DNA from: Lingula anatina
Taxonomy: Eukaryota; Animalia; Brachiopoda
Direction of reading: 5' to 3'
NCBI GenBank assembly: GCA_051362555.1
Contig: CM120640.1
Location: 57,638,788 to 57,702,787 of the forward strand
Length of the DNA: 64,000 bases
Each line of letters begins with the position of its first letter. The first letter of the stretch is position 1. The translations under genes and the position numbers were made by a program. This document shows, in pieces, positions 2,680 to 63,957 of the stretch. The notes under the pieces are model-generated. The model made no database searches and had not been told where the DNA came from. It saw only the letters and a list, made by a program, of their open reading frames with translations.

Positions 2680-2713
<34 letters not shown>

Positions 2714-18815: not shown

Positions 18816-19035
18816 GGGACCATTCCCATAATCCTATCGTACTAGCAGGATCTATCTCCGAGGGGATTCTCACTGAATTGCATTCAGTTTAAGCGTGCAC
18901 GAAAGTTAATTACCCCTTTACAGCTTCAGTGGGCGTGGCAAACATTTAAGCCGTTTAAACTGAATGCAATTTAGCGAGAATCCCCTTGGAGTTAGATCAA
19001 TCCAGTTAGTACGACACGTTTATGGGAACCCGGTC
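18816..19035. mobile_element. Short palindromic MITE, family A
   Basis: Inverted ends TTCCCATA...TATGGGAA. The internal GGGGATTCTCACTGAATTGCA/TGCAATTTAGCGAGAATCCCC and TTAATTACCCC core is shared with copies near 37664, 46535 and 47859. Confidence 0.7.
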
Positions 19036-19086
19036 AAAGTGATATATTTTCTTGTTGTTTTCCAGACATCTAACCTATCCGCAAAG

Positions 19087-34500: not shown

Positions 34501-36593
34501 TAACAATTCTTTAACTGAAATATAATTTCACTTATGGTAATATTCACACAAACACACACAAACTGAGTGAGAAAGAGAGTGAGAGAGTGAGTTTGCATTA
34601 TAATTCCAACTCACCTATTACTTATTCCAGCGAGCGCAAGAAATCCAAGAGCTACCCACTGCAATGGGGAGATTGGCCTTAAAATCAAATTAAGATTATT
34701 AAACAAACTTTGATTCACTTAGCTTATACTACTGTGGCAAGAAAAAACGTTGATCAGCATACTAAGCAATTGGCCGCTACTTTGTCAATTAAATAGACCC
34801 TCCTCTCCAGTTGCCAATCGTCATGATTTAATCATTATAACCAAATTCATTTTACACAAAAACTGAAAATTGGCATCATCCCATTTTCTTGGCCTATTTA
34901 AGAGCATTTTATCCGATTATTATTATAGGAGCAGTAAACTACAAGCCAATAACCAAAATAGCAGCATTCATTAAGATATCCACCAACCTTTTGATTATCA
35001 GTCTATAGAGGAATGCTGTAGATAAGATTTTTAGATTTCCCAGCACCTGAAAGGAAAATAATCTTCAGTCAGCAAACAGAAGTCTGCGTTTTCAATGTAA
35101 GGGATTTAAATTGGCATGAATAAAATCAATGTGTTAATCTCTTATGCTTTCAAAGATTCAAGGCAAGTATTAGTACTATTGATATTCAATGTACAAATTA
35201 TGACAGCTTCCTACACAGTTAACCAGTTACAGCTTTCTTATTGTAACATTTACGAACATACATATGTGTGTACTAGTATATGCCAAATCATGTACATAAA
35301 TCAAAGGCTGCATTTGCTAAGATTACCTGATATGTAGCTGGGTCCATCTGGAGTTGCATGTGTACAGCAATATTGTTGTTAAAACAATACAACAGTGCAG
35401 GAACAGCAAAAGGAAGAGCAAACTTAAAACTGGGCATGTTAAAACCTTTCTCCTGCACCTCTGGTATAAACAACACTATGGAGATGAGCAACTGTGAAAA
35501 AAAATTGAACTATTATCTATAACTTGGTAACATGTCACTTAACCTTGCTCAAACGAGCAATTAACACATGCAACTTCACTTCATATCAGATTTACTTTAA
35601 GAAAAAAAACTAACTATTCTTTATTACCTACACTGATGCAATCAGGTCATCATCTTAATCATTATTACAACTACATATATAACTTTAATTCAACGTCAGG
35701 GCAGATGGAAATGTTCACAATATGTCACTGAGAGCACACTTTAACATCAAGCCTTTATACCTTTGATATTTCAATGACAAGAACCATGGAGGATGAGCTG
35801 AAAGGAATCTTCCCATCTACTTCACACAGATGCACCAGGATAGTATAGGAACCATATATCAAGGTCCTGAAAGCAAATTCAAACTACATACCAACACATT
35901 AAATATTTGATATTTTCATCAATAATATGTGAATTCAATGACCAAAAACAAAAGCAAAAAGAATACAACATATATAAATAATATAATCAGATAAGTGACA
36001 GGTGAGTTTGTCAAGCACTCTTTCTATGACTTAATTCATCAAATTAAATCTTAAAAATAAGCTTTTTAAAACTTAAAATTTTCTAATTTTTTAATTTCTT
36101 AAATCTGGAAATAATAATGTTTTGCTTATATAATGCTGCCAAAAGATCAACTACAGATAACTTACCTATAAAATTACACTCACTTTAAGCTCACACATAC
36201 AAGTAATAAAGAAATTGATCAATATTTTGTGAATTGTCTAACAGAAAGACTCACGATATCAGGTACTCACCCTATACAGATCATGACCCTCCACAGACAG
36301 AGGTTAACTGGCTTTGAAGGCTCTGCCAAGGAAGATAACTCATTATCTTTATTTATGGTGACATGAGTGTGCACCTGAAATAAAAACATCAGTTCATGAA
36401 GAAAATTCTGAGAAAGCTTTAAGAACTCAAATGTGAATAGCTCTACATCTTGGATCTATCTTCTTAGTTCAGTTAAAGCAATAATTTATAAGAAAATCAA
36501 ACAGTAATGAAACACATTTTAAAAAACTATATAACTTTTTCATAAAAAACATATTTATAAAATATTTACGCTCTTCTTGTCTGCAGCCATCAT
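31522..36593 (-). CDS. SLC35A4: SLC35A4-like probable nucleotide-sugar transporter, 338 aa (exons 36570-36593, 36271-36374, 35761-35866, 35327-35491, 34988-35046, 34615-34677, 34283-34430, 33975-34071, 32074-32132, 31522-31713)
   Basis: Ten GT-AG exons sum to 1017 nt in frame. Motifs LCEVDGKIPFSSSSMVLVIEISK, PFAVPALLYCFNNN...MDPATYQVLGNLKI, SGLAGVYTEYILK, HLQNILLYIFG and GLIMSAIMKHSSNIARLF match SLC35A4. Confidence 0.92.
32397..33504. mobile_element. Non-autonomous PIF/Harbinger-like DNA transposon in an SLC35A4 intron
   Basis: TIRs GGCCACACTTTTTT..TTTTATGGATGACATCCT at both ends and TAA TSD (32394-96, 33505-07). CpG-rich inside a CpG-poor gene. Confidence 0.85.
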
Positions 36594-37805: not shown

Positions 37806-39728
37806 GGGGAGAGCGGGGTTGGTTGGAACAGTTTTCACGTTTTTTGCGATATCTCAGCAGTCAAAGCTTTGGGGACAAAAATAAAAAATCTGATAGGGGA
37901 AAATTATATGCCGCACTCATCTATGAAATAAAACATCAAGTAGGTCTTTTTATTTTAGAGTTATAAATGCTCAAAGTTGCCTCCTAAAACGTTCCATCTC
38001 ACCCCACCCGCGGGGTCAGTTGGAACAGGCAGTGGGGTGAGTTGGAACAAGAGGGCGAGTTAGAACGCTTGCATATAAATTCAAAGTATAATTCATTTTA
38101 AGAGTAGGATTATCTATATTAATTTCCCAACAAGTAAGTGTTACTTTGTATTCGTATCTCCATAGTTTGTAAGCATTTTTTACGTTTACAATTCGCCTTT
38201 AAATAGTCTTTTCGATGTATAAACCATATCCAGTTACACTTCATTTCATAATGATAACAAAAGTGGTGTAGTTTAAGAGAAAAGAAATTGAACTCATATA
38301 TCTCAACCTATTAACAACAGTATGTTAGACCTACAAATGAAAACTGTATCTCTTTCAACTCAACAACTCAGAATCAAAATCGCAGTTCTGACATATGTAC
38401 ACTCGGTCACCCTTACAGTCTTCATGTGACCACTTTAGACAAACAATGCATTTAACCCATTTCTCTTTTGGTCGGCTGTTAATGAACGGCTCCCCACAAA
38501 CCAGACATGGCCACTCTTCTTCTGACACAGAATCGCTGGTCATCTTTAATTTCCTTTTTTCTCTATCGACTAGAAATCTTTAACTGTTTTTTATTTTTGT
38601 TGCGCTTGTCCTTTTTAATTTTGTTGGGCTTGGCCTTTTCTTTTTCGAGTAGCTCATTTTCAGGTGTGTCAGTTAGTACTGCACTGCATCGTTTTCTTCT
38701 TTTAATCTTTGGACTGCGACGGTGAGCCTCTGGACTTGAGCTGTTTTGGGGTTTTCTTAAGTGCTCTTTAGTGTGTTGTACCACCTCTTCCGGTGAGGGC
38801 AACTGAGATTTCAACTGAATCTTTGCCTAAGTTACGAGGTGAATGTTTGTCTTTTCTGGCGGATTTTGTACCCTCGTTCACTAAACATTGACAGCAACCC
38901 CCAATCCATTACACAAAGCATTTAAAACAATATCGGCAGAATTGGTGTTGTATAGTTTATCCATAACATAGGCTCTCAGCTAGAATATTTTCATTTTGCC
39001 GCGAAAAGCAGAGTAATAATCGACATTTCCTTCCACATTTAAAAGCAATTTATCGCAAAAAGCAACAGTGGGCATGCAGACCCCTATTCGACCAAACAGC
39101 TAGCAACTGCATTTAACAAGCAGTGACCATCCCCCCTTGTATCTTCTAAACGCATGTACATTCCGGCATCATGGAGATGTTCTATCAGCTAGATTCCGTC
39201 TCCAGTTGGAGTTGTACTGGGTTACTACGTTACTACTCTCTTCAAAGTTGAAATTAAAATATTTAGAGAGGTTTAAAAAAATGAAAAACACCGTGCGGGG
39301 TGGGTTGGAACACCCCTGACAGTGTTCCAACTGGCCCCATGTCAAATGTTCCGACCAGCCCCCATGACGTCATGGCCTACTTATGACACTGTATTTCTTT
39401 AACACGTGGGAAGTGTTTAAAAAAAACGACAGCTTTTTGAACATCAAGGTGGTCCTAAACGCTATGCACAATTTCAGTGATATAATCCTTATACTTTAGT
39501 TTACAGCACGATGAATGTCAAAAATATGAAAACTTACTTCGAGTAGCAAAAATAAGTTTTTTTCGCATAAAACTTTTACTGTATTTTCGAAACTTCCACA
39601 AGTTTACCGGATGAATGACCATGCCACGTGACATTTTTATGCTGAAGGAGCACATGATCGGTCTTGTGGTTTAAGAAATAAAGCCAATGTTCCAACTTAC
39701 CCGCGTTCCAACCCACCCCGCTCTCCCC
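37806..39728 (-). mobile_element. Internally deleted pogo/Tc1-mariner-like transposon with PHD-finger and OTU-like relics
   Basis: TIR GGGGAGAGCGGGGT(T/G)GGTTGGAAC, TA TSD and subterminal GTTGGAACA repeats. Minus-strand frameshifted transposase C-terminus (SAVLTDTPE...; CLVCGEPF...WVKCIVCLKWSHEDC...YICQNC) at 38355-38814. Confidence 0.85.
38355..39160 (-). pseudogene. Disrupted transposon coding relics: OTU-like fragment (38881-39160) and transposase C-terminus/PHD-like finger (38355-38814)
   Basis: MRLEDTRGDGHCLLNAVASCL*, then YVMDKLYNTNSADIVLNALCNGLGVAVNV*, then the Cys-rich finger. Stops and frameshifts are present. Confidence 0.65.
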
Positions 39729-45171: not shown

Positions 45172-45269
45172 CACAAAGATGTGTGACATGAAATCTACAG
45201 ATGGTCATTCTGTAGATTTCAGGTCACACATCTTTGTGTGTGACATGAAATCTACAGATGGTCATTCTG
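45172..45269. repeat. 30-bp-stem hairpin followed by a direct copy of the first arm and loop
   Basis: CACAAAGATGTGTGACATGAAATCTACAGA-tggtcat-TCTGTAGATTTCAGGTCACACATCTTTGTG (one mismatch). 45237-45269 repeats 45180-45212. Confidence 0.9.
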
Positions 45270-45629
45270 AATTCATCTCTAAGTTGTTGTCATGAAGTCA
45301 TGCATTTCATAAGCAGCGCTTGTTGATTCTGTCCACTCTTTTTATCGGATTGATCAGATAACTTATTTTGACCAATCAGAGGCGCCCTTTAGAAGACTCA
45401 GGGCCATTCGAATGACCAGGGTTATTGTCTCTTTCGTGGTCACCACCTATTCTAAAAGAAAACAAAAACATATTTTAGGGAATGACAGATCTGTTTGATA
45501 CTCCACTACATGGACACACCCGCTGAGGGTAACAGTACATATTGCATTGTCTGTAGCCAACAGGCTTAAATTTTGCCGAACGTTGGTTGCAGGCGACGTG
45601 AAGTTCACGCAGTTCCAAGCTCCAACATC

Positions 45630-46002
45630 ATGGGAGGTGGAAGAGGACAGGGAAGAAATGTAGGAGGCTGCGAGTTAAGTTGGGTCACGGGTTTGGTCTT
45701 GGTGTTTCTTGCTGTAGCAGCATGCGTTGGCACTGCCGTCGTCACATATTTCATAACTTATGAATTTGTGAAAGATCGGTTACTTGAAACAAAACTTTCA
45801 GAATTAACAGCACACAGCGCACAAGGAGGAGAGTTCCCCAATAAAAAGAATTATCTAAAATTAGGTGAACTTTATGAAGTTGACAATGGGAGATCTTCGA
45901 TCAAACTCACTGCGGCCAGGTCTAGACTTGCTCGTCATGTGGAATCCGTTGACGGGGGCATTATGTCTTCCCAGACCAGCGGCAGTTCCGTGGGGAATAA
46001 TG
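45630..46002 (+). CDS. First coding exon: short cytoplasmic tail, signal-anchor TM helix and stalk
   Basis: MGGGRGQGRNVGGCELSW-VTGLVLVFLAVAACVGTAVVTYFITY. It ends at a G|GTGAGT phase-1 donor, in frame with the acceptor at 53502/53503. Confidence 0.75.
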
Positions 46003-49000
46003 GTGAGTGCCCCAATGTAATTTTTAAGTCAATGACAGTTTCACTTATTTTATTTCGCTTTTTTTTTTACAACATGATGGACAGAAAATTAAATACATAA
46101 TTGTTTATTCCGCAACGCCTCGAATGTTGTTGATAAAGATCACGTTTCAAATCGCTGTATCAAAAGAAAACAGCTGAGCGCTTTTGAAATAACAACAAAG
46201 AATATGATAAATATACCTGCCTGAATAAAATATATTCATTAATACTTATACAAATTACTTCGATAGTAACCTAACTAATTTGTCTGATTTATTCTAAATT
46301 AAGATGTCATATTTCATATCATACAAAAATGCTGTGACACGAAGATGATAATGGTTTAGTGGTCCATAATTGTATTTTACATCTAAGCAGTGCGTTTTGC
46401 CAATTTTCCTGCTACTATACAAAGAGATAAGAGCGGATTTAACATGTGCTAAAGATAGATAAAAGAAGTGATTATATTTTGTTAAGACTTTATAAACAGT
46501 GTCCTACACCCGGGTGTATAACTTAGTACCCACACTTAGTCCGACCAAGGAATTGGATATCTAAGATTGGGTTCCCATCCCTAGATCGATCTAACAGGAT
46601 CGGTCCATCTCCACGGGGTTTTTCGCTAAATTGATTTCAGCATGTGGCTTAAATGTCTGGGACGCCTACTAAAGCTGCTAAACGATAGTTAATTACCCCC
46701 TATCAACTTCAGTAGGCGTGACAGACATCTAAGCCGCTTAAATTAATTGCAATTAAGTGAGAATCCCCTTGGAGATAGTTCGATCCAAAGTTAGTACGAT
46801 AGTCTCTGGGAATTGTTTCTAATTCCTTGGTCTGACCAAGGAGTAGCATGCTGCAACTTCTTAAGCTTGGTCTGAAATAGCCCAAGATTTTTTAAATGGA
46901 TGATTCAGTTGACGTCCAATGATAGTTGCAAAGTGTCAAAAATATTATATTCTATATTTTATAACAATAACAAGAGCAAACACACTGGAAAAAATGAACG
47001 CGGGGTTTACACAATCACGTCTTGATAGTAAGTCACGTGCGACCAAAAAAAAAAACGCTGTGACCCGTGGCCATGACGTGGTAATTCCTATAGACATTCA
47101 AATGTAATAGAAATTAGATGAAACAGAGGAAAGCGATAAAAACACCGAATACACAGTTCACAGAATTTTGTTATTAACTGAGCGCATGCCGATTTTCAGC
47201 TTTCAGTGAACCGTTTGCAGAGTTAAACCCGGTACAGTCGATATTTTCCCATTTTCTTAATAGAATAGAAAGGTATTATAGATATTCGCCTATTTTTATT
47301 TTATGTGTTCCCCTTTTCTGTTTTCAGATTATGAGCAAAGCATCAATCTTGTAAGAGTTTTGTTCTTTTCTATAAGAAACCAGACTTGTTAAATACATTT
47401 CACACTGAAATGCAAATTTGACCATTGAAAATAATACAATTTAATACTTCTGCTTAAATCAGGAAGCCGCTTCTGACAAAACTAGGCCCTCAAAAGTAAA
47501 CTCTTTTCTTTTATAATCCCAGCGGCTACCTATTCGGTAAACCATACATTACCGAACCCCAGTGCGTCAAATAATGATATCAGGTAGTTCAAAAGACCAG
47601 GGTGTGCGACATTAACCACTAATAAGGTCCTATTTACAGGGTACTTTCTTGATAAGCCCTTGGTACCAACATGGTGGGTATGATGATTCCAAGATGATCT
47701 TTATACTTAAGGGAAGTTACATTTGTCACAGGTTTATACAAATATCAAATAATACTCTCCTTTCATAAGACAGAGTAAGGTATATCTTCACATTTGAACA
47801 AGTATAGCTGCATTCGGAGCTGACCCCTAGCTCAACAGTAAGAGCCTACTGAGCCTTAGGGAGCGTTCACATAAACCCATTGTATTAGCTGGATCGATCT
47901 GACTCCACGGGGATTCTCGCTAAATTAAGCCCACACGATAGTTTATTACCCCCAGCAGCTTGTGTAGGCGTGCCAGACAATTAAGCTGCAGCGACAAGCC
48001 CCCGCATAGTTAGATCGACCCAGCTGGTGCGAGGGGGTATGTGAACGCAGTCCAAACTTTTTAGTCACTGACAATACCCTATAGAAGGGAATGAAAATTT
48101 AAAGGGTGCGATCATAAAGAATTTGTCGTTCTAATGCGCACTAACTCTACGAGGACTCTCGCTGAATGCAGTCATATTAACAAACAAACACGCCTCTCCC
48201 TGGCGTTGAATATAGAAAAACTGGTGATTATACGCGTACGTTTGAGACAACTCTGATAATCTGAATGCCTTTAGCAAGAGTTGAGTTAGTGTGCCAGTAC
48301 GATAGATTCATTGTGAATGCACCCTTAGTGACTAGGGCCACACAGATCGCACATCAACATAGCTCTGTGTATGATCCTAATAGGCTACAGCTAGAGAAAA
48401 TAAGCTTTTATTCATGGATGAACTATTTGGCGTCCAAAACAGCAACGGCGTCAGTTTGTTTCCACTGTTATCATAATTTTTCTTACGTACCTCAAAGTTG
48501 CAAGAAACTAAATCTATGAAATTTGTGCAAATTTCTAGAAAAAATATTTCAATTATCACCTCAATTTTTTTTTTGTTTCAAAATAGATACTTTGTCGAAA
48601 ATTTTTCGAATGAAATATAGAATGCCTGTGAACCCTTTATCTGAAAGTAGAAAGGATGCGCTTTTTCTTTTTATTTCATACTGTATGGGCTCATTCACAT
48701 TGAAACTATGGGTCTACTTAGATCGATCCAACTCCACGGGGACTCTCGCTGAATATAACCAGTTTAACAGATTAACATGCCTCCTCCAGGCTTTAAGGCC
48801 GGTGATAGTAAAAGGACCAAAGTCATAGAAACAAAGCCCTGGGCTTATAAGTTTTTATAAAAAATTAAAACAAACTTCCCAAAAGGCCAATTAAAGACGG
48901 GGATTAAGTACAGTGTCCAACGGATGACGCTCTGGCGCCAATTTGAGGGGAAAAATGCCGTTTTCGGTATTGGGATTTTCTCTATAACCAAGACAGCTAT

Positions 49001-52000
49001 TCAAGTGATTCAAAAGGCCTCATAAAGCTGGGTGAAAGCACTTCAGCGCGGTACCAGGGAATTGTCTTAAACTATTTACTTTTGATTTTATCATCTTTTA
49101 CGTTAAATTACCCCATATTTCAATGGCTTATTCACTTCAAAAGGCGATATCTTTCAAACAAACAATTTTCTCTTAAACCCCTGATATCATGCTGTAGTCC
49201 ACATTCCTAACAACAATAGGTGCAACTTTTGTAACGATCGGTTGCTCAGATAGTGAGATATACTTGGCAGCGATTCACTTATCTTGTCAATATAGAAAGC
49301 TGTTAAAACAGCCAAAAACGTTCACAGGTTGGTTAACAGGGCTTATTAGTCAAATGCTTAGCTGGCAAATTTACCTGTTATCGGTTATACGATCAGCTGG
49401 AACCATTGCTTATTGTCATCTAAAAATATTTTGTTTGGGTGCTTTGAAGGGGCAGAAAATCGTGCTTTTGTTACATTTTCCGACCACTCGTTAGGCATGT
49501 AAGCGTGCCGCCATTTTGATTGACAGCTCTGGAGAGGGCCCTAGCCTAGTGATGCCCAGTAGGGTGTCAAGGATATGTAGAAGGAAGCGCTAACAAAGGC
49601 GATTACGTTTAACCGCAATTAAGAGGTGTGAAGTCGCATTTGAACGTTTCAATGGCTCTTCCTCGGCAATCGAGTAATTTTACCTGAGAGATTCCTTCTT
49701 TGTTATCGGCAAAGTGATCAGATAAAACTGTGTCGAGAGCAAGTGTCCGTCACTTGTGTTGATACGAGTTTTTTGACGGGTAACGCTGCAGGATTATTTT
49801 GCACGGCACTTGGTAGTCGTCAGATCAACGGAAAAATCCAGTGATTACTTCAGAGCGGTCTCGCTCAAAATGCCAGCTAAGATAAAGGGGAGACGCTCAG
49901 CTGCACAAGATTCAGCGGTAAAAGTGGCTGAGAGAAGGCTTTTGAATAAATATTTTATTTTTACACACATGACACTTAGACCCTATTTGCTTTTTACCTG
50001 CTAGCCTTGACTATTCTCGGGGTCTTTTTGTGATTTTCATTTTTGGACACTTGAACTCTTTCTTCCCGCTTGATCAGTGATTTTGAAATTGTTTTTCTCC
50101 AAATATCGCAAAATGCAAAGCCGCTAACATGCGTTTTTATTTTTATTGTTTTAATCATGCTGTCCAGCTTTGCTTGGATTTCTCTTGTTTGGCCATTCAA
50201 ATCACAATTTTTCGCGTGTCTCTCAAGCTCCATGATATCATATCTTGGAGAATAAAATTTTATTTTGTCAACATTAGATTTACCTTTTGCAAACGGCGAC
50301 CAACAATCATTTCCGGTTTCGTAACGTGTCGCAGATACGCTCGACGATATATATCGTAAAAATTAAAGGCTAGGCTAAGAGTATCCTTTTTTAGCTTTTT
50401 TTATTTATGTTTTTATCGATTTTTCTTTCATTTGTCAATTAATTTAGACGTTTCGATTAACTCTTTCACCCATTTATTAGGTATACAGAAATCAGTCATC
50501 CGACTGAACAAATAGGGCCGGTTTTCCCCAACCGCCACGCATAGGCCTTACTCTCAAAATTTTCCTTCTTTCCTCTGGAAAGGGACTTTTAACACGAACT
50601 TTTCTCTTCCCCATAGTGTACTAGCTAGACTTCTTCGCTGCTAAGCTGATGTAAGACTTATGACCTATTACCGCACACGTAATCGGCTTATAACTCATTA
50701 ACTGTGCTCCGACCCCCTCATGGCAACGGCCCTTAGTAACAGAGGCGTGGCTTAGTTGTCAGCCTGACTGGGGCGCGTGCCGGTTGAAAAACTCATCAAA
50801 AGACGCATTTTGCGATGCAAATTCATAAAAATTATTACATCCAACGTTAGATACTTTTTTGATTAATATAAACACACAAAAAACTCAAAAACACGATTTT
50901 AAGCGTATTTAACCCTATCACCGGCCTTAAGTATTAGCTTTAAGTATTATTTAATAGAAAGGCTGGTGATTATATTACAAGTACGTTGAAATCAAGGATG
51001 AGCCCTATGGCTTGAACGAAAGCTTATACCTACTTAATTAAGGGCGTATAATATTTAAGGCCGACTACTCAAGCGTGACCGAAAGACCTTGACTTCACTC
51101 CTAACTTATGTAACTTAAAACCGTAAAGCGAGCACACGCACGTTAATCATTATATAATGGTAAGTGCGTGACAACAATGTCATGCCTTACCAAACGTCGG
51201 TAGCGTGGTTGTGCACAAAGGGAATGGGGTATGGCCGTCTGATTTTTGTCTTATATCTTTTTAACTGCATACCATCGATCAGATACTTGAGCTGGATGTT
51301 TTCGTATCAAATGATATGTTTGTCCAATGACAGACAGTTTTTTCAACCGATCTCTTAAATTATTTTAAGAAAAATAATATTATGACCCCCACAGACGTCT
51401 ACCTGCTTATTTCTGCATAACAGGACACGTGTTTTTTCACGTGTCACCTCTGAACACCCATTTACTAGTAGATTGACAAATGTGATGGCCTGTTCCCGCA
51501 GGAGTTCCTTTAATATGTTTTCGTGGTTTTATTACTTTTAAATGTTCCTGTCCAGTAGGTTGTAGAGGAAATTGCGTTTGTTACTCATCTTGTATCATAG
51601 AAATCAGTTTTTTTTAACGGAGATATGAAAGATAGACAAACTAAGTTTTTTTATGGTGTTCGCTCCAGTAGGTTGTAAAGGAAACCGCGCTTGTTACTCA
51701 TCTTATATCACAGAAATCAGTTTTATTCTTTTACGGAGATATGAAAGATAGACAAACTTAGTTTTTATGATGTCCACTCCCACTTACTAATAAGCACAAT
51801 GATTCAATGCTGAAGTCAAAATTGTCATTAAATTGAAATAAATATCTCTTAACTGTTCCAATATTAACAGTGCCACAATTGTCATAAAAGATTAAATTTT
51901 CAGACAACATGTCTTGATTGTAATGATAAGATCATTAAATTGCAATTCTTTGCTCAATATTCTTTTTTCATGAGAATAAATTTATAAGTACTTATATGTC

Positions 52001-55000
52001 TATAATAACCACTCCCAAATGCATTTTACAACGACTTTGACAAGCGAAAGAAGACGTTGAAGCACCATCATCTTCAGTGCAGAATTAGCAGGTGAAACGG
52101 AAATATCGAGTGAAAATCAGTTAGATGCTTATAACATTAGTAATTTTAGAACAGCGCCCCCATTGATTTGATACGATTGAATCTTTGACTTAATAAGTTA
52201 ACGGTCTAAAACGAACTCATTTTTTACAGTCTGGCCTCATCAAAGCTGCTCTTACTGTATTTTTCAATATTTTGTGCCAGTATGAAAATGTACTACTGTC
52301 CTAATTGAAGTTACCTATATTCGGTAGTTTATTTTGCCGTTCACCATTAATTATCAAGCTTTCCTTCTCGTCCATCAGAGACCAAATAATAAATGTCAGC
52401 CAATCGACATGTACAATGTACATTAATGGCTCATTACACATTTGTCACGACCTCAGGTCGATTTTTTTTTTTTTTTTGCCCTTTAAATGTTCGCCAAAAT
52501 TAAGTTTTACTATAGGTAAAAGGAACTAATGTTAGTTGAGAATTATTGACCTTGTATGTTTGTGGCGGGTATACTCATCCCCCTTTCCAAGTGAAACAAC
52601 GTCGTTTGCACCCAAGTCTTTCTCTTGTCGTTGCTATTCAATTTCGCTGAGAAGGGTGGGAATGTCACTGTTAATCGACTGTTTACCAGTTTTATGAGCC
52701 GGTTTTGAAGACAACTCTTTTTCGCCACTATATGTTATCGGCATGATCATTCATTACAGGTATACTGGAATGGTCATTGTTCTGGAATCAGCTTTGGTCA
52801 TCGGAGCATTTCTTGAAGGTGGTTAAATCGAAAACTGGTGTTGAGCATTATAATCTTCTTCGTTCTTGACATATTAGTCATTTTGCCTTTGAGCAGTCAT
52901 TTTCTTGATAATGTAGGCTAGTATTGGTTCAGTCACAGGCCAAAGAGACATTGCCCTAATACCAAATGACATCCAGGTATATGGCATTCAATTTTTTATC
53001 AAGCCAAGTTTATCCTTGCTCGTAACTTACGTCTTATCGTTTAAAGAAATTAGAACATATTGGGGACTTATAAGGTTTTGTTGTTGCGACTCGAGGCTGT
53101 ATTAAAAGTACAAAGGAACATTAACTATAAATGAAACACAGAATTGGACATAGAGTCAAAATAATAAGATAATGAAAATTGATTCTAATCCTGGATCTTG
53201 CCCTGTAGGTTAAAATGGAGATGACGACGTTTCGACCTTATCACAAAGTCGTCTTCAAGTGAACTGATTCCAATTGTCACCTGTGTGTCCGTTTCAACGT
53301 ATATAATCGGATGGATAAAAAAATTCATTTTTAAGTGAAATATAACACTTTAATTATTAAAATGTTATGTCAAGTTCTTGTATCTAACTTCTTGTTTTGA
53401 AATACAGTCTAGTAATTATCCAAAATATTCCACCCTCCATGAAAGTAATGTTGCATATCGTTTTGCTTCATTAATGTTGTTTGGAATATTTCTTTACTTT
53501 AGTTAGGTCGGGGAGCATGACACAAATGACGGGAGCCAAGGATGCCAAGGGCAACGAATATATGGTGATGTTTACGGAAAATATGTTAATGGATGACTTC
53601 TATGAGAAAAACCCCATCAAAGAACTGTTTATTTCTGCTGGAAATAGTTTTCAGTCGGGCAGCTCTGTGCAGGTCTCATACTACAATGGCGCCACCTTGA
53701 TGAATAACACATACCATATTCCGCAGGGCAAGACCATTCGAGTGGACTTGTCAAACTTGGGTTTAGAACTCAAAGGATCTACAGTGGGAAGGAAAGGTAT
53801 CGAAATAAAGTCTGCCACAGAGATTGCTGTGTTTGTCATGAACAAAGACACATTTACCAGTGAGGGATACTTGGCCATCCCTAACGACGGATTGGGAAAG
53901 GCATATATTACTGTGAGCTATCCACCGTACCCAGAAGAGAAAGCATCTATGTCGGAGTTGGGAGTGGTCGCTCCTGAAGATGGTACTGTAGTTATGATGC
54001 AATTGCCAATGGTTCGTGATCTTACTGTCACTCTGAATGGACAGGAGTACTCAGCCGGGAGCATGATAGACGTATCACTGAACAAGTTCGATGCAGTCCA
54101 AATTCAAAGTGACAAAGACCTGTCTGGAACCTATATTACGTCCAATAAACCAGTAGCCGTCTTCAGCGGAAATGGCCGCACAGCAATTCCAAAAACCAGA
54201 GCTTCTCGAGACCATTTAGTGGAACAACTCCCACCCGTGGACTCCTGGGGGAACGATTTCGCCACCGTTCCGATACCAAGACGAACACAGGGAGACTATT
54301 TCCGCATCACGGCGGCAGAACCAAATACAAACATCAGGGTCCAAAGTAGCAGTGGTTCTGTTTTCACATATGCCATTTCCAAGGCAGGAAAAAGCATCCA
54401 GGATATCAGTAACTTCAAGTCAACCGACCTCTACCGCATTGTGTCAGATAAACCTATAATGGTAGCCCAGTTCGTCTCCAGTCAGCTGAAAGCAGGAGCT
54501 GCAGAAAAGGCGGACCCATCAATGATAATCATCCCACCCATACAACAATACAGCAGAGATTATTTCTTCGCTCTTCCCAAGGCTGCCAGTGATTTAAGTC
54601 TTGTTGCTCCCCCATTCAAGCATCAGGTTATGGTCGTAATAGCAGGCAGCAAGAGAAGCGGTCTTATGTTGGACGGGGCGCCAGTTCAGCTTCCAGCAGA
54701 TGCCATGTGGAAACAGATTCCAAACAACCCAGAAGGAGATCTTGAATCTACTAACCTTGTCGGAGCATTCATTGACGTACTCAATGAAGACGCCCATCAT
54801 AGTTTGCAGCACACCGATCCGAATGTCAGTTTCATGGCTATCATGTATGGATCCGGCGACAGAGAAAGTTATGCAATGCCCATGGGTATGGAGCTTGCTT
54901 CGATAAACCCCAATCCGGTGAGCAAATAAGGACTAATTTGGGCTTAATCGCTTATTAATATGTTTTTGCTTCATCTGACAGTATAGAACTGCGTTATGTA

Positions 55001-58000
55001 TTATATTCTGCATTCAATTCTTTTTTTTTTTTTTTTTTTGTAGGCGGGGGGAGTTATTTAGGACGCTCAATAATACTGTTACAAGTCCTTCTATACTGAT
55101 GAATCATGTTAAATTTTGTTATAATAAATAAAAATTGTTTCTAAAAACAAATTCAGAAACTTTGACATCCCGTTTTTTCCATATTTTAATTACAGATTTT
55201 GCCTGCCTCTGTTGATGTAATGGATGGCACAGGAAAAGAATATATGATAATGTTCACAGAGAACATGCTGATGGACTACTATCATGAGAAAAATCCAGTG
55301 TTAGAATTGTTCATTTCCCTCGCTAACAAAAGAGTCCCAGAAGCTATGGTATACGTGTCATACTATAACAATAGTCGCCTAATGAACGTGTCTTACGAAA
55401 TTATTCCCGGTGTTATGAAACGCATTGATCTCTCTAAAGCTAATCTAGAGATGATAGGGACTGGTGTGGAGCGAAAAGCAATTGAAATTAAATCTACTGA
55501 GGATATTTTAGTTTACGGTATGAATAAAGATACTTTCACAACGGACGGCTTTCTCGCCGTGCCCAGAAGCGGTGTAGGTAGTAATTATGTTACTATAAAC
55601 TATCCACCATATCCCGAAGATACCGCCTCAAGGGCAGAATTTGGCATAGCACCATTTGAAGATGACACCAAAGTGATCATCAAAATGCCGTCAAGAGACT
55701 CCATGTTTATACGTCTTAATGGTAAAACATACAGTGGTGGTTCCAACGTTGAGATAACATTAGACAAGTTTGACGCCCTACAGATCCAGAGTGGTAAGGA
55801 CCTGACAGGCTCTTACATAAAAACCAACAAGCCTGTGTCGGTATTTAGTGGTAACGGTCGCACAGCTATCCCGAAGTCTAGAGCATCAAGAGACCATCTT
55901 GTTGAGCAGATGTTGCCGGTTGAATCATGGGGAAAGGTCTTCTTGACAACGCCATTTCCAGATAGAACAGAAGGAGATTACATTCGCATCATAGCATCTG
56001 AGGCTGACACAGATGTTTACATATACCGCAACGATGGTATGAGCAGCTATTTCAACATCCGTATGTCCGGGGGAGACATTTCTTTCGATGGCGCTAATGA
56101 GCCTTACAGGATACAGGCAAGCAAACCGATTCTTGTTGTTCAATTTGTAACCAGCCAGCGCTCGGTTGACGACCCTGAAAGGGCCGATCCAGCTATGTTG
56201 GTCATCCCACCGGTTGAACAGTACAGTCGAGACTACACCTTTACACTGCCATCAGCAGCAAGCGTTGGGAGAGATGGTTCTCCATTCAAACACAAGGTTA
56301 TGATCATCGTACAAGAACGATATAAGGATGACATAGCACTGAATGGCCAGCCTCTTGGACTGTCACCCGATAGATGGCAAGACGTCCCAAGCAAGTCCAG
56401 TGATGATTTTCCAGAAAATGCCTTCGTGTCGACATCACTAAGTGTGACAGGGGAAGATTCCGTTTCCCACACCCTAGCCCATCCTGATCCTGATGTCACA
56501 TTTATGGCAGCACTCTATGGAGCTGGTGACAGGGAAAGTTATGCCCTGCCCATGGGAATGAAATTACGGCCAATCAATTCCGAACCGGTAAGTCAGCTGA
56601 TTTCATTGACTTATATTTTCATGAGGCTGTGTATTTTGTCAGTTTATCTTTCAAAAGTCCAGCATTTAGTAAATGTGTCAAACAGTTAAGCATTTACCAG
56701 TCAAACGAAAAATTGCTTTTCCTAAGGACAGCACTTTGGTCAAATGCCCGCGGGCCACTAGATTTCAAATCAAATCTAGATTTCAAATCTCTTATTTTCT
56801 TTTCCTGTATCTTAATTCCATAGTATGGAATCTTGAAGGCGCTGCGTTGACACTCCGAACGCTAAGCTTTTCCATTCCACGAAGCCCATGTTTGTCCATC
56901 TAATAACTAAAGCATCTAATAATCTTAAATATGGATTAAGAAAAGCAGTTTGAAATCATATCCTCTTCAAGAATAACACCTTGATTAATTCAATATGTAT
57001 ATATATATATGCATTTTTGAAGCACGTAATATTAGTAACTAATTCGTTTTTAATTTTTACTTATAGCCAACTCCACGCGGTAAGTCATTTTTAAGAAAAA
57101 CCTCTTTTATTAACTTTAAACCGAGAATGACTTTATAACATCAGGTTTTACACGTAAGCATTTCGAGAACAATTTAATTCACAGCGAAATGGAATTCTCA
57201 TTTGGGAAAATCAAGATAACATGTTGGTTTTGTATCAAGTCCTAAGACTTATTTTCGACTTGTTTTCGTCTCCTTTCTTTACCAAAACAAAAGGGCAGTT
57301 GCTTAAAAAGAAAATGATTTTACACTTTGTTAAGGTAAAAAGAGAATTTTGAATTGTAGCAATTCTTTCTTGTAAAAGTAAAAATGCATTAAGAACACAT
57401 ATATTGGGTTAACTGTTTTGCTTGTTTGACTTTTACCACCCCACCTCTGCACAGGCATGCTTGGCGGAGATGCTAGCGCTCCATCAGGCGAGGTTCCAAT
57501 ACCTATTCAAGACATCCGCTTGCCATCTTACGTCAAACCAGTTCACTATGGAATTATCATCCAACCTAATTTCTACAATAAGATGCCACACACCTTTGAC
57601 TTCAATGGCACTGCCACCATCACTTTCTCTACAACCAGGGACACGAATTCGATCACAATGCACTCGAGAGATCTGAATATAGATCGGAGTAGCGTCGAAC
57701 TCAAAGGACCAGATGGCATGGTGGAAGTAACAAACATCAAGGAAGATAAGCCGCGAGACCTCATTATTTTTGACACTGCCAGCATGCTAAACCCACAGAC
57801 GAATTATACTATAAAGATGAACTTCCGAGGAAAGATGAATTCTCAACCCATGGGCATGTTTTACATCAATCTTAATACCGACGATGAACCAGAGTATGTT
57901 TTTAACGTCGCTTGAGACAACCTCAGTATAATCAGTATAATCAGTATAATCCACTCTTCAGTTGTGTTCCACGGGAACTTACCTGAGGGGACATTGTCCT

Positions 58001-61000
58001 AAAATGATGGCTTTTTGAAAATGAGGATCTTCATTTTTTTGTTTATTTTTTTTTTCGGGTAACATTTGTGTATCATATAAATATATAAATCTGAATTGTT
58101 TCTTGATTGTTATAAAATGCAATCGATGTTAAAGAAACTTGATATATAACACAACTATGTAATTCCAATCTATACATGTATGTTGCATTGGTGTTTTAAA
58201 ATTAACGAGCATAACACAGCAGTTTATTTCATTTTATAAGGTATATGGTTTCCACAAGCCTCAAACCGAATTATGCCAGAAAGGTTTTCCCATCCTTCGA
58301 CGAACCAGGGATGCTGGCAACTTATAGCATATCAATTGTAAGAAAGGAACCATGGACGTCAATGTCTACCATGCCTCTTGAATATACAACTGAAAGGTAC
58401 CAGTTTATATTTCATACTATAATCATCTGGCGATACCCTATGCCCCATTGAAATAACCTTTAAGTTGAAATTAAAATTTGTAAAAGATTATTTTCAGAAA
58501 CTATTGTATTTTATGTTATCTTCATAAGCAGAGATTATTGAATCTGAAATATTAAATGTTACAGACCAGATGGAATGAAAGAAGATCGATTTGAAACCAC
58601 GCCCATGATTCCACCTTATGCTGTCTCTATGACACTTTCTAATATGACAAAGAATAAGGAATATAGGACAACAACTGGTGTAAATGTAAGTAGTACATTT
58701 TGCTCACGATCTTCTTATTCTAAAGTCAGTGGACATAATGTGTTTCTTATTTTCTTTAAGTCTTAACTCATTTTAATCAGGTATCATTTTCTCTATTATC
58801 TTCAGAACCCATTTGCAAGCCAATTAACTAAAACATTCAAATATCAGTTAGACCATTTGTATTTAGTCTTATTATAATACGTAACTGACTGGAATAAAAG
58901 CCCGTTGTCTTTTTAAAGGTCCGATTATGGACACGGGAAGACGCCCCAGAATTGATGCCTCGTCTTTTGGAAACCACCGGCAAAACCATTGAAACCTTGG
59001 AGACGGTTTTAGGAACGCCATATCCATATAAAACATTAGGTAAACTTGAATTGGGTTTTTAATACATGGTTTTATTAGGAAAACATGTTTTATCCCATTC
59101 TTGTCCTGTGTGTTTAAAAAGTATGAAAGACCATGTGTTTAAACTATTTGGACGTTCGCTAGAGAGTAACATATTGGAACAACATTTAAATGACTATTCA
59201 GGGAGATAATTATGTAATATCGATTTTGTGAAAATACATTATTCCAGATATATTAGGGATCCCCAACAGGCAACAATCAGTTGAAGGAACCTACTTGGAA
59301 CCAACTGCTAGTGCAGGAAGCGTAAACATCCCGGAAACGGAGTTAATGGCGTCTCGTACCTCACCAACGGACAGTCTAAGCCGCTTTGTGTCAAAGTATA
59401 ACAAAGACATAATTCAACAGGTGACTTAATTTCAAGTACACGCAATCATTCTGTGAAAAGCCGTAGTATAGGCTCAATTCTGCGGCAGAATGACAACAAT
59501 TGTTTGAATCAACTTGGCTCGAAGTAAAGAAAGGATGCATAGGGTCTGGGATAGCTTAAGTAAATAGAAGAAGATTTCGTATATTAACCTATAGTGTTCA
59601 GTGCATACATTGTTCTTTATCAGTTTTTTTTTTCAAACATGGTGGATTGAAATAAATACTTGAACTAAATGATTAGATAATGGGAACGAATATGTAGTCC
59701 AAATGGAGCGTAACTTTTTTTTCAATTTTTCAGTTGATTGGTACAAACGTGCCTCCTACGTGGTGGAATAGCGACTGGGTCAACAATGGTTTGGTCAGCT
59801 ACTTGGAAAAAATAGTGTATCCACTCTCGGGTGGACAGCAACTGGTATGTGTTTCAGTAGACGTCACGCGATTCACCTGTTGGTAAAGGACTACTTAAAT
59901 ATTGGTAAAAGGTTTTTTATGTGTTCAGCATGACGTACTCCTGTCATATGATTGATTCTTTTAAGCTTCAAAATGAACGAGCCAGCAAATTACATTACAT
60001 ATGGCGTGTTTGTTTTGCACGAAAATTTCTAATTTTTGAAAAATGGACAGCGTCTATGTGGTGTTTCTATTAGATTTTGCAATAATTATATATATACTGT
60101 TACAATTCACTTTAAAAGGAGGACCAGTATATCCTGCAGTCAATTCTACCGACCATGGAGGCCGATTCCGTCCTTGGGGTTCCCGCATTAAATACACCCA
60201 TTAACAACCCGACTATGATCAGCGATGGGCCGACACCTCTTCCCGGTACTAAGGTAAGTTAAGGGGTAGATGCAAAGGTATGTCATCGCTTTTGTTTGAG
60301 GTCAAAGTAACAAGGGGGGATGTTTCCTAGCTTAAAGGACAACTCCTTTAATTCTGAGGAACTGCAGCGACATATATTATCGAGAAGGAAATGGTAGCCA
60401 TGTCCCTGTGGTTACTGAGTATGTGCAGTTATTGTATCTTAAAGTACTTATTATTTTCATTATTATTTGTTTATATCATTTTATATAGGTCAACCTCTTA
60501 TATTTCTAGGGTGGAGCTATTTTACGCATGCTAGCGTCTGTCGTAGGAGAAGACACTCTGAATAAAGCAATTAAGGTAAGATTTTATCCTTATTAAGAGG
60601 CAAAGATATTGTATAGTTTTGTTGTTAGCTTTAATTATAGATGAATGCTTATCATTTATATATACAGTTTATTTTATAATCATCACATTAAACAGAAAAT
60701 TCTTCAAATATATTCAATGCAGAACTCACATGTGTTTGAATATCTTAAACTAGCGCTACGTAACAGACATGGCAGGGACATCAGCAACAGAGGAAGATTT
60801 TTGGGAAACGATTTCTGAGGTATGTGAAGTTTTCGTAAATTTCATATACAAAAAACTATTATTATATTATCGTTATTGTCAAGGCGTTAACGTTAGCAGT
60901 AAAATATTCCGTAATAATTCACAGTAGTTCCACAGCATGGGCGTACTGTATGAGGGGGTCTGGTGGCCTCGCCCTGTACATCGCTGTTGCCTTTTTACTT

Positions 61001-63957
61001 CTTACTTTATTTCAACCACCCCTAGCCATAAGCGCAGAAAGTAGGGTAATTCCCACAACTAGTTCTTTTCCAAACGGTCCCCCCCCCCCTTACACATACG
61101 CACACACATACTACTAAAGTTTGCTTCCTATGCCCCTGCACACTATTTTTTATCATTCATGGATTTAACCACAAGGGATATAAACACGGTGGAAATAGTT
61201 ATATGGTGTCCTCTATTATAGCAAGTAAACGAAGAAGGAAGAAGAATGAACATCAGAGACCTGATGACCCCTTGGTCTACACAATCAGGCTATCCAGTAG
61301 TGACGATTGACCGCTCAGCAATGAACAGGCCTCCGTCTGGTGGAGCCACCGTCTTCCAGAACAAGTTCACTGTCCAACCTGACAGCCAACCCTACGAGGC
61401 CGTGACGTCATCAGATGACGAGCCCAATGGGGAATTAGGAACAACTCCAATGAACAGGCAAGTGATCAGTAATTGGCAGGCTGAAGTATGGATAGTATTC
61501 TGTATACCTTATATGATAGTAAACAAATATATTGTACCCTATAATAAAGGATTATTATAACGTGTTATTTTAAAAAATGTAAATCTTCTTGAGACTCGAT
61601 TTTATGAAGATTCAAAATAACACATTACCAAATGTTATATTTTTTGTATTCAAGGCCAACATGGAATATTCCTGTTACATATATTACGAGTAGAAGTCCG
61701 AACACTGATAGCAGCAAGAGATTCTGGATGCATGAAAACAACGGTACGTGTTGTATCCTACAATTTATTAATCGCATCGTTTGTGTAAAAAAAGTTTGAC
61801 AACAATGTAAATGGGGGAATATGATAAATGAAGGCATTCGATATTAGACATCCATGTTGGTATTTTTAAAACGAATAATGCGAGCTGGTTTCTATCCATT
61901 ACTCTATGGAATTATTTTTTTGACATCTTATATATCTTTATTTAAACTGATATCAATTAAACGTTTAGGTACAAAAATGAGTCAAAATGTGAATATTTAA
62001 AACTAAACTTAATTTTTTTAGATAACCTTGTTAAGTCATTTTAATCGACGGTATATATATTTAAGTGTTTGGTGATCACTTTTTAATGTACAGAAAATAA
62101 ACCTATATTTGTTGATAAAACTTCAGCCCAAGGATGGAGAACAATAACTGTAATTTAAGTGACTGATTGAAGAAATCACACCATAAAATTGATAAAGCAA
62201 GCGATTAAATTATTTACTAGTATTTAGAATAACTTTTTTCTACTTTACCAGTAACAATTAGCGATGACGCTATGAACTACATCGGAGACAAAGACTGGAT
62301 TATTGGTAATGCTCAGATGCCTAGCTACTACCGTGTAAACTATGACATCGACAACTGGAACAATATAGTCGATCAGTTATTATCGGATCACGAGGTAAGG
62401 AATATTTAAGGAATATTTCGACTTGGCGACTTTTTATAACCTAATTTCATTATTGAGTTCCGTGTATCATTTTCTGCAACATATAATCGTTGTTTTAGTA
62501 ATGGGTTGTTGTCAATGCTATCACTGTACCACTATCTTATAGTCGAGCATCTTTGTAACATATATAATCGCATAGGTTGTGCTGTACTATTGATTATGAA
62601 GTTTTGTCAAGGCATATTGTATATTGAAAATGTTAATATCTGCATTAATTACCAATCTGCTTCTATTAAATTTTCATAATTTTACTATTTATTCATGTTT
62701 ATACTATTTTTCTCCTAGAAAATTGACCCCATTAACAGAGCACAAATCATAGACGATCTTTTCAATCTGTTGAGGTAGGTTGTGTATTACAGATTTAGCG
62801 GCACAAAGGTGAATTACTGGCAAAAAAAACTCCCCAATACGCACCTTAACCTGCTTTAGATACTAAACGTTCAATTCCAATTATACCATTTTCTTTTAAA
62901 TAAAACGCTGTGTTTAAAGCCGTTTTCTTAGTATTTTTATCTTTGCCCCCTCCCACTGACCAGTCTCTGTGTTTAATTTTGCTGTAGCATTGCAAACGAC
63001 GCGTTTTCATTTGCCAATTAACCCGGCGTGATGTTATCTCACTAATTCAAAGTAATGGATATCATTTGATCGATTCGTCTATAAAAAACATGTAACAAGG
63101 CCAAATATAATCATCATCACATATTTAGAAAATAATATCTAAACAGGCACATAACACATCGAGAATACGCCCTCTTCAGTGAACTGTATTATCATGTTTT
63201 GGTAATTCCAGAGCTAATGTTGCTCCAGTGGACGTCAAGTTAGTGATGCGTGGAACTAGATACCTCGGAAACGAGACCGCTTTCTTGCCCTGGGCGGTGG
63301 CACTCCGACATCTTAATAGCCTAGATTGTATGCTGAGGAAAACTGAGGGATACGGAGACTTTAAAGTAGTTTTTTTTAATTTAAATTTTTTTATTGACAA
63401 ACGACTAGCGTGACACCTTTAAAAGAGCTCAAAAACATTGTTTTATTTTGTGTCATCATTTTTCTGATTTACAAAGATTTATTCATCTGTGAACAGATAT
63501 AACTAAGGAAAAATATTCATTCGACGTGTCATCTCTCTAATGTCAATTTTTTTTCATTATCCTGCTCTAGCGTTACGTCGAGATGCTTATAGGTCCGCAG
63601 ATTGAAAGGCTTGGTTGGGAGGATGATGGAACAACTTCGAATAGGTAAGCGTGTCTCGCGTTTGTTATTCTTAGGCCGTTGTAGCTTGCTTTGAAATATT
63701 CAATTTCGCCATGAATTGTTAGAATTTATTATGCATGACAGAAATTCTAGTGAAATGTTTTGAAAAGCTGTTGTCTCTATTTGAAGTGTATAAATTGTAA
63801 ATGCATCATAAAATCATATCATTTACTTTGTTTCCAGATTGTTAAGACCACTCCTTTTGAAAGTGGCTATGAATCTGAACCACGCTCCGTCCATAGCTGA
63901 GGCACTACGTCTTTTTAATCAATGGACTCAAAAAGAAAATCCAGATACGGAAAACAC
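45630..63957 (+). CDS. Type II membrane protein: TM anchor + 2x IgGFc-binding domains + catalytically dead M1 (aminopeptidase N-like) peptidase + ERAP1_C-type domain; 3'-partial, >=1817 aa
   Basis: Exons 45630-46002, 53503-54917, 55196-56587, 57067-57079, 57455-57893, 58241-58396, 58565-58685, 58919-59039, 59248-59420, 59734-59844, 60119-60253, 60510-60575, 60754-60819, 61222-61457, 61655-61743, 62252-62394, 62719-62774, 63212-63365, 63571-63644 and 63838-63957 splice into one open frame of 5453 nt. APN motifs include DIRLPSYVKPVHY, ARKVFPSFDEP, KGGAILRML, WSTQSGYPVVT, YYRVNYD and NRAQIIDDLFNL. Confidence 0.85.
46535..46839. mobile_element. Family A-related palindromic MITE
   Basis: Outer inverted repeat CTTAGTCCGACCAAGGAATT / AATTCCTTGGTCTGACCAAG and an inner family A core. 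Confidence 0.65.
47859..48054. mobile_element. Family A-related MITE
   Basis: GCGTTCACATA...TATGTGAACGC inverted ends and the shared core. Confidence 0.6.
48104..48324. mobile_element. Degenerate MITE related to the 48687 element
   Basis: GGGTGC...GCACCC ends. Shares GGACTCTCGCTGAAT and CTGGTGATTATA with the 48687-51005 arms. Confidence 0.5.
48687..51005. mobile_element. MITE (GGGCTCAT TIR, TAT TSD) interrupted by the Kolobok-like element
   Basis: TAT-GGGCTCAT...ATGAGCCC-TAT. Arms at 48687-48796 and 50927-51005. Confidence 0.6.
48797..50926. mobile_element. Non-autonomous Kolobok-like DNA transposon (2.1 kb)
   Basis: Perfect 12-bp TIR GGCCGGTGATAG / CTATCACCGGCC flanked by TTAA on both sides. 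Purine-initial termini with a TTAA TSD fit Kolobok rather than piggyBac. Confidence 0.75.
51551..51780. repeat. Tandem duplication, ~113-bp unit x2
   Basis: TCCAGTAGGTTGTA...ACGGAGATATGAAAGATAGACAAACT starts at 51551 and again at 51664. Confidence 0.9.
53503..54917 (+). CDS. IgGFc-binding (FCGBP N-terminal-like) domain 1, single ~472-codon exon
   Basis: Family motifs ITSNKPVAVFSGN, DHLVEQLPPVDSWG, IVSDKPIMVAQF, DPSMIIIPPIQQY and YGSGDRESYAMPMGM. Donor CCG|GTGAG. Confidence 0.9.
55196..56587 (+). CDS. IgGFc-binding (FCGBP N-terminal-like) domain 2, single 464-codon phase 0-0 exon
   Basis: Paralog of domain 1 (IKTNKPVSVFSGNGRTAIPK, DHLVEQMLPVESWG, DPAMLVIPPVEQY, YGAGDRESYALPMGM). Acceptor TTACAG| and donor CCG|GTAAG. 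Confidence 0.9.
57455..63957 (+). CDS. M1 aminopeptidase N-like region (N-terminal beta domain, degenerate catalytic domain, ERAP1_C-type domain)
   Basis: Sixteen exons with APN-type sequence. The Zn-binding and GAMEN motifs are substituted. Confidence 0.9.

Follow-up and report, generated by a model that had tools for sequence, protein, structure and literature searches.

Does a single gene join a membrane anchor, two FCGBP_N domains (the IgGFc_binding family, PF17517) and the body of an M1 aminopeptidase, and what would such a protein do? The question is raised by a stretch of 64,000 nucleotides from Lingula anatina (assembly GCA_051362555.1, contig CM120640.1, forward-strand positions 57,638,788 to 57,702,787; hereafter the window), in which 20 plus-strand exons between positions 45630 and 63957, joined by coordinates, give 5453 nt and 1817 codons with no stop. 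A first-pass annotation had proposed a stop-free frame of at least 1817 aa for these exons; rejoining them returned the same length, which confirms that they can be read as one open frame. Our best overall explanation, to which we give about even credence, is that the locus encodes an anchored, catalytically dead aminopeptidase N (APN)-like scaffold bearing a glycan-binding pair of FCGBP_N domains. The exons are as follows.

45630-46002, plus strand: exon 1, the transmembrane (TM) exon, ending in phase 1 with donor GTGAGT
53503-54917, plus strand: exon 2, the first FCGBP_N exon, phase 1 to 0, 471 full codons
55196-56587, plus strand: exon 3, the second FCGBP_N exon, phase 0 to 0, 464 aa
57067-57079, plus strand: exon 4, a predicted 13-nt microexon, phase 0 to 1, which restores the frame into the M1 part
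57455-57893 (or from 57512), plus strand: exon 5, the first M1 exon, domain I with the RLP..P.HY start, beginning in phase 1
58241-58396, 58565-58685 and 58919-59039, plus strand: exons 6-8, M1 domain I/II
59248-59420, 59734-59844 and 60119-60253, plus strand: exons 9-11, degenerate active site
60510-60575, 60754-60819, 61222-61457 (GC donor) and 61655-61743, plus strand: exons 12-15, M1 domain II/III
62252-62394, 62719-62774, 63212-63365, 63571-63644 and 63838-63957, plus strand: exons 16-20, ERAP1_C (domain IV)

These exons make up a spliced gene of animal type, with a GC content of 0.35 in the AT-rich introns versus 0.45-0.47 in the exons, and both GC and GC3 (GC at third codon positions) are alike across its parts. 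The two FCGBP_N exons match PF17517 with 222 bits (E 1.2e-65) and 196 bits (E 8.2e-58) against a gathering cut-off of 25.6, and the M1 fold follows with domains I-IV ordered as PF17900 (E 4.3e-14 and 9.8e-12), PF01433 (weak, 0.075) and PF11838 (on three exons), the C-terminal half of domain IV lying beyond the window. Exon 20 closes with a donor and the gene runs past the window; since the ERAP1_C profile has been reached only to position 163 of 318 by this last exon, the full protein should be near 2000 residues. Exon 12 requires the AG before 60510, as the alternative acceptor at 60489 introduces a stop, and exon 14 probably ends in a GC donor at 61457, or else in a GT at 61468 coupled to an exon 15 donor at 61747. 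For the first M1 exon, the acceptor at 57455 is poor (-7.8) and that at 57512 scores 6.8; both are in phase 1, and the model that uses 57512 is stop-free with 1798 aa. Both FCGBP_N exons had been said to end in donors just before the stops of their open reading frames (ORFs), which is accurate for the first (3 codons) and not for the second, where the frame reads on for 33 codons. By eye, intron 1 carries three copies of a short interspersed repeat (about 46583-46730, 47890-47990 and 48720-48755), and a direct duplication of about 35-40 bp is visible at 45177-45270, roughly 400 bp upstream of the gene's start codon.

The exons between the TM exon and the M1 exons form a cassette of 2820 nt that runs from phase 1 to phase 1 and is divisible by 3; because it is frame-neutral, inclusion and skipping are both possible. 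To judge from its splice sites, the cassette is quite probably included in the mRNA of at least one isoform. A splice-site matrix was trained on the M1 exons alone and then applied to the TM, FCGBP_N and micro exons, and the sites that define the chimera score like ordinary ones, with donors of 6.6 (46002), 5.8 (54917), 10.1 (56587) and 9.7 bits (57079) and acceptors of 7.1 (53503), 8.1 (55196) and 6.9 bits (57067). The microexon site, in the correct phase, is unique within the 867 bp of 56588-57454, for which the expected number of look-alikes, whatever their phase, is about 0.15-0.2; the remaining introns of the gene contain 2 over 12,021 bp, and the first 45 kb contain 11. Leaving the microexon out breaks the frame and introduces 55 stops.

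These data have to be weighed against two genes on one strand, in which the TM exon is spliced directly to the M1 exons, giving a dead APN of conventional length, and an FCGBP_N gene with its own start and end is nested in the first intron. Several observations speak for this arrangement or against a single transcript: the direct splice likewise leaves no stop over the 877 aa that fall in the window, one AATAAA occurs in the intron that separates the FCGBP_N exons (at 55123), a weak candidate first exon with a hydrophobic run lies at 52770-52818 (donor 4.6), ATGs occur inside the first FCGBP_N exon at 53517 and 53526, and proteins that stop right after FCGBP_N do exist (3 of the 13 loci listed; P0003, P0004). 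However, the donor of the candidate first exon, GTGGTT, is non-consensus and a Glu interrupts its hydrophobic run, strong donors end both FCGBP_N exons (the second is among the gene's best), no polyadenylation hexamer follows the second of them (AATAAA and ATTAAA are both absent from 56588-57454, as from 11% of 2000 shuffles), and a phase-correcting microexon is present where few look-alikes are expected. We therefore regard the nested gene as unlikely.

Similarly, the TM and FCGBP_N exons could belong to one gene, with the M1 exons as a separate, anchorless gene downstream, translated from an in-frame ATG at 57458, at the start of the first M1 exon. The poor score of acceptor 57455 fits this arrangement, and insect APN isoforms without signal sequences have been reported (10.1101/849612; papers are cited here and below for the excerpts available). 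Against it, the AT-rich stretch between the parts is shorter than 900 bp and offers neither a polyadenylation hexamer nor a single ATG-to-donor first-exon candidate in 56588-57454 (54918-55195 likewise contains none). Moreover, within the ORF of the first M1 exon the best-scoring acceptors, 57512 and 57488, are in phase 1 and fit the TM exon and the microexon, and the M1 part contains five N-glycosylation sequons, which leaves a separate M1 gene improbable. Collectively, frame, phase, splice-site and homology evidence supports the chimeric architecture of the first-pass annotation, at the level of sequence only, and the exon-shuffling origin proposed with it.

What kind of M1 protein is attached to the cassette is clearer: the M1 part is almost certainly catalytically dead. 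It aligns to an intact bacterial M1 protein over 689 residues (E 6e-29), and the best PDB sequence matches of its single exons are ERAP1, glutamyl aminopeptidase, ERAP2 and APN. In the bacterial alignment the GxMEN position reads EPTAS (59298-59312), with no xMEN anywhere in the model, and the HExxH position reads KDIIQ (59403-59417). The third zinc ligand, a Glu that lies about 18 residues after HExxH in M1 enzymes, is replaced by Asn (59785-59787), human APN WLNEG aligning with WVNNG; the register is set by an alignment of exon 10 to human APN 396-419, which shows the same Glu-to-Asn change. The Tyr of Y-x-K-G, the transition-state residue of M1 enzymes, is Gly (60245-60247; GTKGG versus YNKGG). 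Substitutions have thus removed every zinc ligand, the two catalytic glutamates and the Tyr, and the other forward frames at the place of the active site contain neither an HExxH-type nor a GAMEN motif. The motifs compared are those that define the family (PMC5385526, 10.1101/849612). Because every catalytic residue is replaced, the protein is likely a non-enzymatic binding scaffold. A binding role had already been suggested, and the sequence supports a non-enzymatic one; the chief argument for a scaffold is now the catalytic death, which the earlier reading lacked.

Loss of catalytic motifs, together with the far divergence of the M1 part from all database M1 proteins, could also point to a pseudogene in decay or to an artefact of assembly. 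This is very improbable, as no stop or frameshift occurs over 1817 codons and 19 introns, splice sites are canonical throughout, GC and GC3 do not differ between the parts, and the proportion of nonsynonymous differences between the FCGBP_N exons (pN 0.33) is well under that of synonymous differences (pS 0.86). With its frame intact and with this pattern in the FCGBP_N exons, the M1 part is best read as a maintained pseudo-enzyme, not a pseudogene.

The FCGBP_N pair itself is an old duplication. The two exons are 50% identical, and in a quick tree of 54 FCGBP_N domains (2 short matches dropped; support by the Shimodaira-Hasegawa-like approximate likelihood ratio test, SH-aLRT) the two units are sisters (99), which indicates tandem duplication in place; their next neighbor is P0131 (96), and all three fall inside a 29-member group (95) with Lingula, Watersipora and Patella among its members, in keeping with a probable lophotrochozoan host. 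Over the 463 codon pairs compared, synonymous sites are saturated and pN is far lower, so the duplication is old and the pair has been under purifying selection. The first FCGBP_N exon has no Cys and, as had been claimed, no signal peptide; the 1817 aa within the window contain 3 Cys, no vWD match and no GDPH. Among the best 150 of 8831 library matches, the nearest relatives are about 39-42% identical. A phase-0 GT follows the domain in 4 of the 13 loci listed, representing two distinct sequences, and since these animal-looking loci carry a phase-0 donor at the domain end, FCGBP_N appears to behave as an exon module. A protein-level tally of read-through, which discriminates weakly, finds Val at offset 14-18 past the domain in 25 of 32 records that end there and in 26 of 58 that continue. 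P0131, the closest relative, lies on a 4240-bp contig and has two insertions in common with the domains of the window; P0047, P0049 and P0144 each lie on an 8714-bp contig, perhaps as a single tandem array. The surroundings of these four might hold the same fusion.

The name IgGFc-binding, used in the first-pass annotation, is a misnomer. A human FCGBP construct that included the N-terminal domain showed no IgG binding (PMC8267560), and we reject IgG binding as a function; what the N-terminal domain does in human FCGBP has been called unclear (PMC11796319).

A different ligand is suggested by the predicted fold. The AlphaFold2 model of the second FCGBP_N exon, built from 82 sequences, is compact and all-beta, with a predicted local distance difference test score (pLDDT) of 93 and a predicted TM-score of 0.93. 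The unit contains three homologous repeats (HHalign Prob 85, 51 and 96) at 55223-56218, residues 10-341 of that exon, as well as a fourth part in which HHalign detects no homology to the repeats. The three repeats are predicted to be beta-sandwiches. Folded alone (pLDDT 91), repeat 1 has TM1070 as its top match in two programs (Foldseek E 2e-4, TM-score 0.62; VIA-align Z 10.8, root-mean-square deviation 4.5, 108 aligned), with ASRT (Z 7.0) and alpha-2-macroglobulin (6.7) as VIA-align runners-up. In its predicted model, this repeat has the eight-stranded beta-sandwich that TM1070 and ASRT, the Anabaena sensory rhodopsin transducer, share as ASRAH domains; repeats 2 and 3 are connected to that fold only through their homology to repeat 1. 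The FCGBP_N profile of 82 sequences retrieved nothing from the PDB at E 10, and the whole model has no global PDB fold match (TM-score at most 0.16 among the matches listed, best Z 7.5). Sugar binding and assembly into dyads or tetrads have been proposed for ASRAH domains, which have been described for prokaryotes only (PMC2739507); tandem repeats, as in their amidase-linked tetrads, are a further likeness to the FCGBP_N unit. FCGBP does not occur in the available text of PMC2739507, and a literature search found no link between FCGBP and ASRAH. If the models are right, the three-repeat structure would extend to human FCGBP-N1 and to bacterial members of the family.

At the other end of the chimera, the TM exon consists of a 17-aa N-terminal tail, one hydrophobic segment (aa about 18-42) and a stalk of about 80 aa. 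The sole strong hydrophobic stretch of the 1817 aa lies here, at aa 21-39 (Kyte-Doolittle mean over 19 residues 2.47; runner-up 1.13), and the segment is predicted to be a type II signal-anchor, N-in and C-out. The charges that flank it (+1 versus 0) are not decisive, so the orientation is taken from homology to APN.

Is the fusion known elsewhere? From the 8831 FCGBP_N matches, 265 homologues were fetched, and neither the M1 part nor the TM part matches any of them (BLAST E 1, phmmer E 10), although the same M1 query picks up the bacterial M1 protein at 6e-29. PF01433, PF17900 and PF11838 labels occur in none of 126 word-search matches, none of 79 metagenome loci, most of them bacterial-looking or short, shows M1 or TM similarity, none of 155 candidates from a word search with the first M1 exon is significant, and a Prevotella region without a usable M1 was set aside. 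The claim that the architecture is undescribed stands to this extent, FCGBP_N plus M1 being absent from the 265 homologues, drawn from the best of 8831 matches, and from the descriptions that a literature search returned. The nearest relatives are about 40% identical, which indicates a poorly sampled lineage, so absence elsewhere is not established. Lang et al. (PMC4948705) describe FCGBP_N joined to many partner domains in invertebrates; the word peptidase does not occur in the main text available, nor do peptidase terms in two supplements, and a further, unsearched file may hold the architectures of their Fig. S5. The architecture is thus, on sequence evidence from one genome, real and probably undescribed, and it is built of known parts.

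Like the membrane M1 aminopeptidases (APN/ENPEP/ERAP-IRAP), the predicted protein has a single N-terminal membrane segment, a stalk and domains I-IV in order; unlike APN, which has a short linker or stalk (PMC5385526), it has about 940 residues inserted there, and unlike active M1 enzymes it has lost its zinc ligands, catalytic glutamates and Tyr. With FCGBP and invertebrate FCGBP_N proteins, where tandem copies are common, it shares two full FCGBP_N units; unlike FCGBP, it lacks vWD-C8-TIL, TSP1, EGF, collagen and the Cys-rich DNDCDG repeat, its FCGBP_N domains are Cys-free, and they sit behind a signal-anchor instead of N-terminally after a signal peptide. The M1 scaffold as a partner sets it apart from the 265 homologues examined. 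A peptidase fold turned to binding recalls Tma108 and the ADAM-type surface pseudopeptidases, but Tma108 is a cytosolic protein in which most active-site residues are retained; among the rows listed in a pseudopeptidase review table, Tma108 alone represents M1, and no extracellular M1 pseudopeptidase appears (PMC11266112).

The example of Tma108 raises the possibility that binding resides in the dead M1 head of the same chimera, which would hold peptides or proteins as a receptor, decoy or adhesion molecule while the FCGBP_N pair serves as a pedestal above the glycocalyx. The M1 body is membrane-distal in the predicted topology, the entire scaffold is open and alignable over 689 residues, the pocket of Tma108, a yeast M1 homologue, binds nascent chains (PMC11266112), and viruses use APN as a receptor at a distance from its active site (PMC5385526). 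On the other hand, the protein of the window lacks the glutamate of GxMEN, which anchors peptide N-termini, whereas Tma108 retains all active-site residues but one (PMC11266112); purifying selection on FCGBP_N is compatible with either role. We consider binding by the M1 head less likely than not by a clear measure.

Returning to the anchored scaffold with a glycan-binding FCGBP_N pair, its origin and action can be tentatively outlined. Phase 1-1 cassettes in a stalk intron are a classic exon-shuffling pattern, and a single-exon FCGBP_N module may have entered the phase-1 stalk intron of an APN-like gene and then duplicated in tandem, the 13-nt microexon rendering the cassette frame-neutral, so that a short isoform without the cassette may exist. 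Glycans on mucus, matrix or microbes would be the ligands of the FCGBP_N units, with their ASRAH-like beta-sandwich repeats. The role of the dead M1 body would be that of a stiff spacer, glycosylated and dimerizing via domain IV in the manner of APN (PMC5385526), and such a dimer would present four FCGBP_N binding units. A cut at the stalk RxxR could shed the protein as a cross-linker in soluble form, the N-terminus of which would now be FCGBP_N. The product is best read as a lineage-restricted, exon-shuffled, non-catalytic surface or shed scaffold, and probably a glycan-binding one. Mucosal defence, microbe binding and biomineralization had each been named as roles; none is favored over the others, and a term search of two biomineralization papers gave no link.

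Several points weigh against this picture. The TM exon has no match in Pfam, the PDB or the Atlas (Atlas best 0.85, low recognition) and shares no detectable homology with the N-terminal ends of APN proteins; what ties it to the M1 part is its phase and its position. The RxxR of the stalk, RLAR at aa 99-102, presumably satisfies just the minimal convertase motif, and domain IV, the putative dimer interface, is spread over short exons and lies only partly inside the window. Unlike the described ASRAH domains, the FCGBP_N unit has a non-homologous fourth part and no PDB profile match, the identity of repeat 1 to TM1070 is 10-14%, ASRAH sugar binding is itself a prediction, and a common fold proves no function. 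In addition, the searches above found no orthologue of like architecture, and FCGBP_N usually stands at the N-terminus of secreted proteins (PMC4948705).

The rest of the window holds features of other genes, as follows.

1-4165, plus strand: exons coding for a protein with an immunoglobulin domain (Ig_3 match, 3674-4162); the gene begins before the window
18964-26881, plus strand: synaptotagmin-like gene, an N-terminal hydrophobic exon plus two C2 domains (PF00168)
31522-35509, probably extending further up, minus strand: nucleotide-sugar transporter gene (PF04142)
38355-38826, minus strand: ORF rich in Lys, with a Cys-rich finger after it (weak C1_2/FYVE_2)

The nucleotide-sugar transporter gene adjoins the chimeric gene on its upstream side and is encoded by the other strand. 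The ORF at 38355-38826 resembles what we take to be the C-terminus of a DNA-transposon protein and is probably a remnant.

The case comes from one genome only, and many FCGBP_N partners in invertebrates are already known; part of its value lies in the pseudo-enzyme and the ASRAH results, neither of which the first-pass annotation contained. If the transcript is confirmed, the gene would be a clean example of an enzyme body stripped of catalysis and put to new use as the membrane scaffold on which a shuffled binding module sits; in its family, extracellular pseudo-enzymes are barely documented. The plan of FCGBP is FCGBP_N at the N-terminus and a dimer formed via the C-terminus, and at its boldest, which we think doubtful, the Lingula protein would be the first extracellular M1 pseudopeptidase acting as a lectin-like cross-linker, on the surface or shed, with four FCGBP_N units per dimer and a spliced cassette switch, that has rebuilt this plan from unrelated parts, human FCGBP_N in turn being a tandem ASRAH-type sugar binder that bacteria have as well. 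The ASRAH-like prediction has wider use, as it offers a concrete glycan-binding test for FCGBP's N-terminal domain; the FCGBP_N domain is Cys-free and encoded by a single exon, so its expression should be easy.

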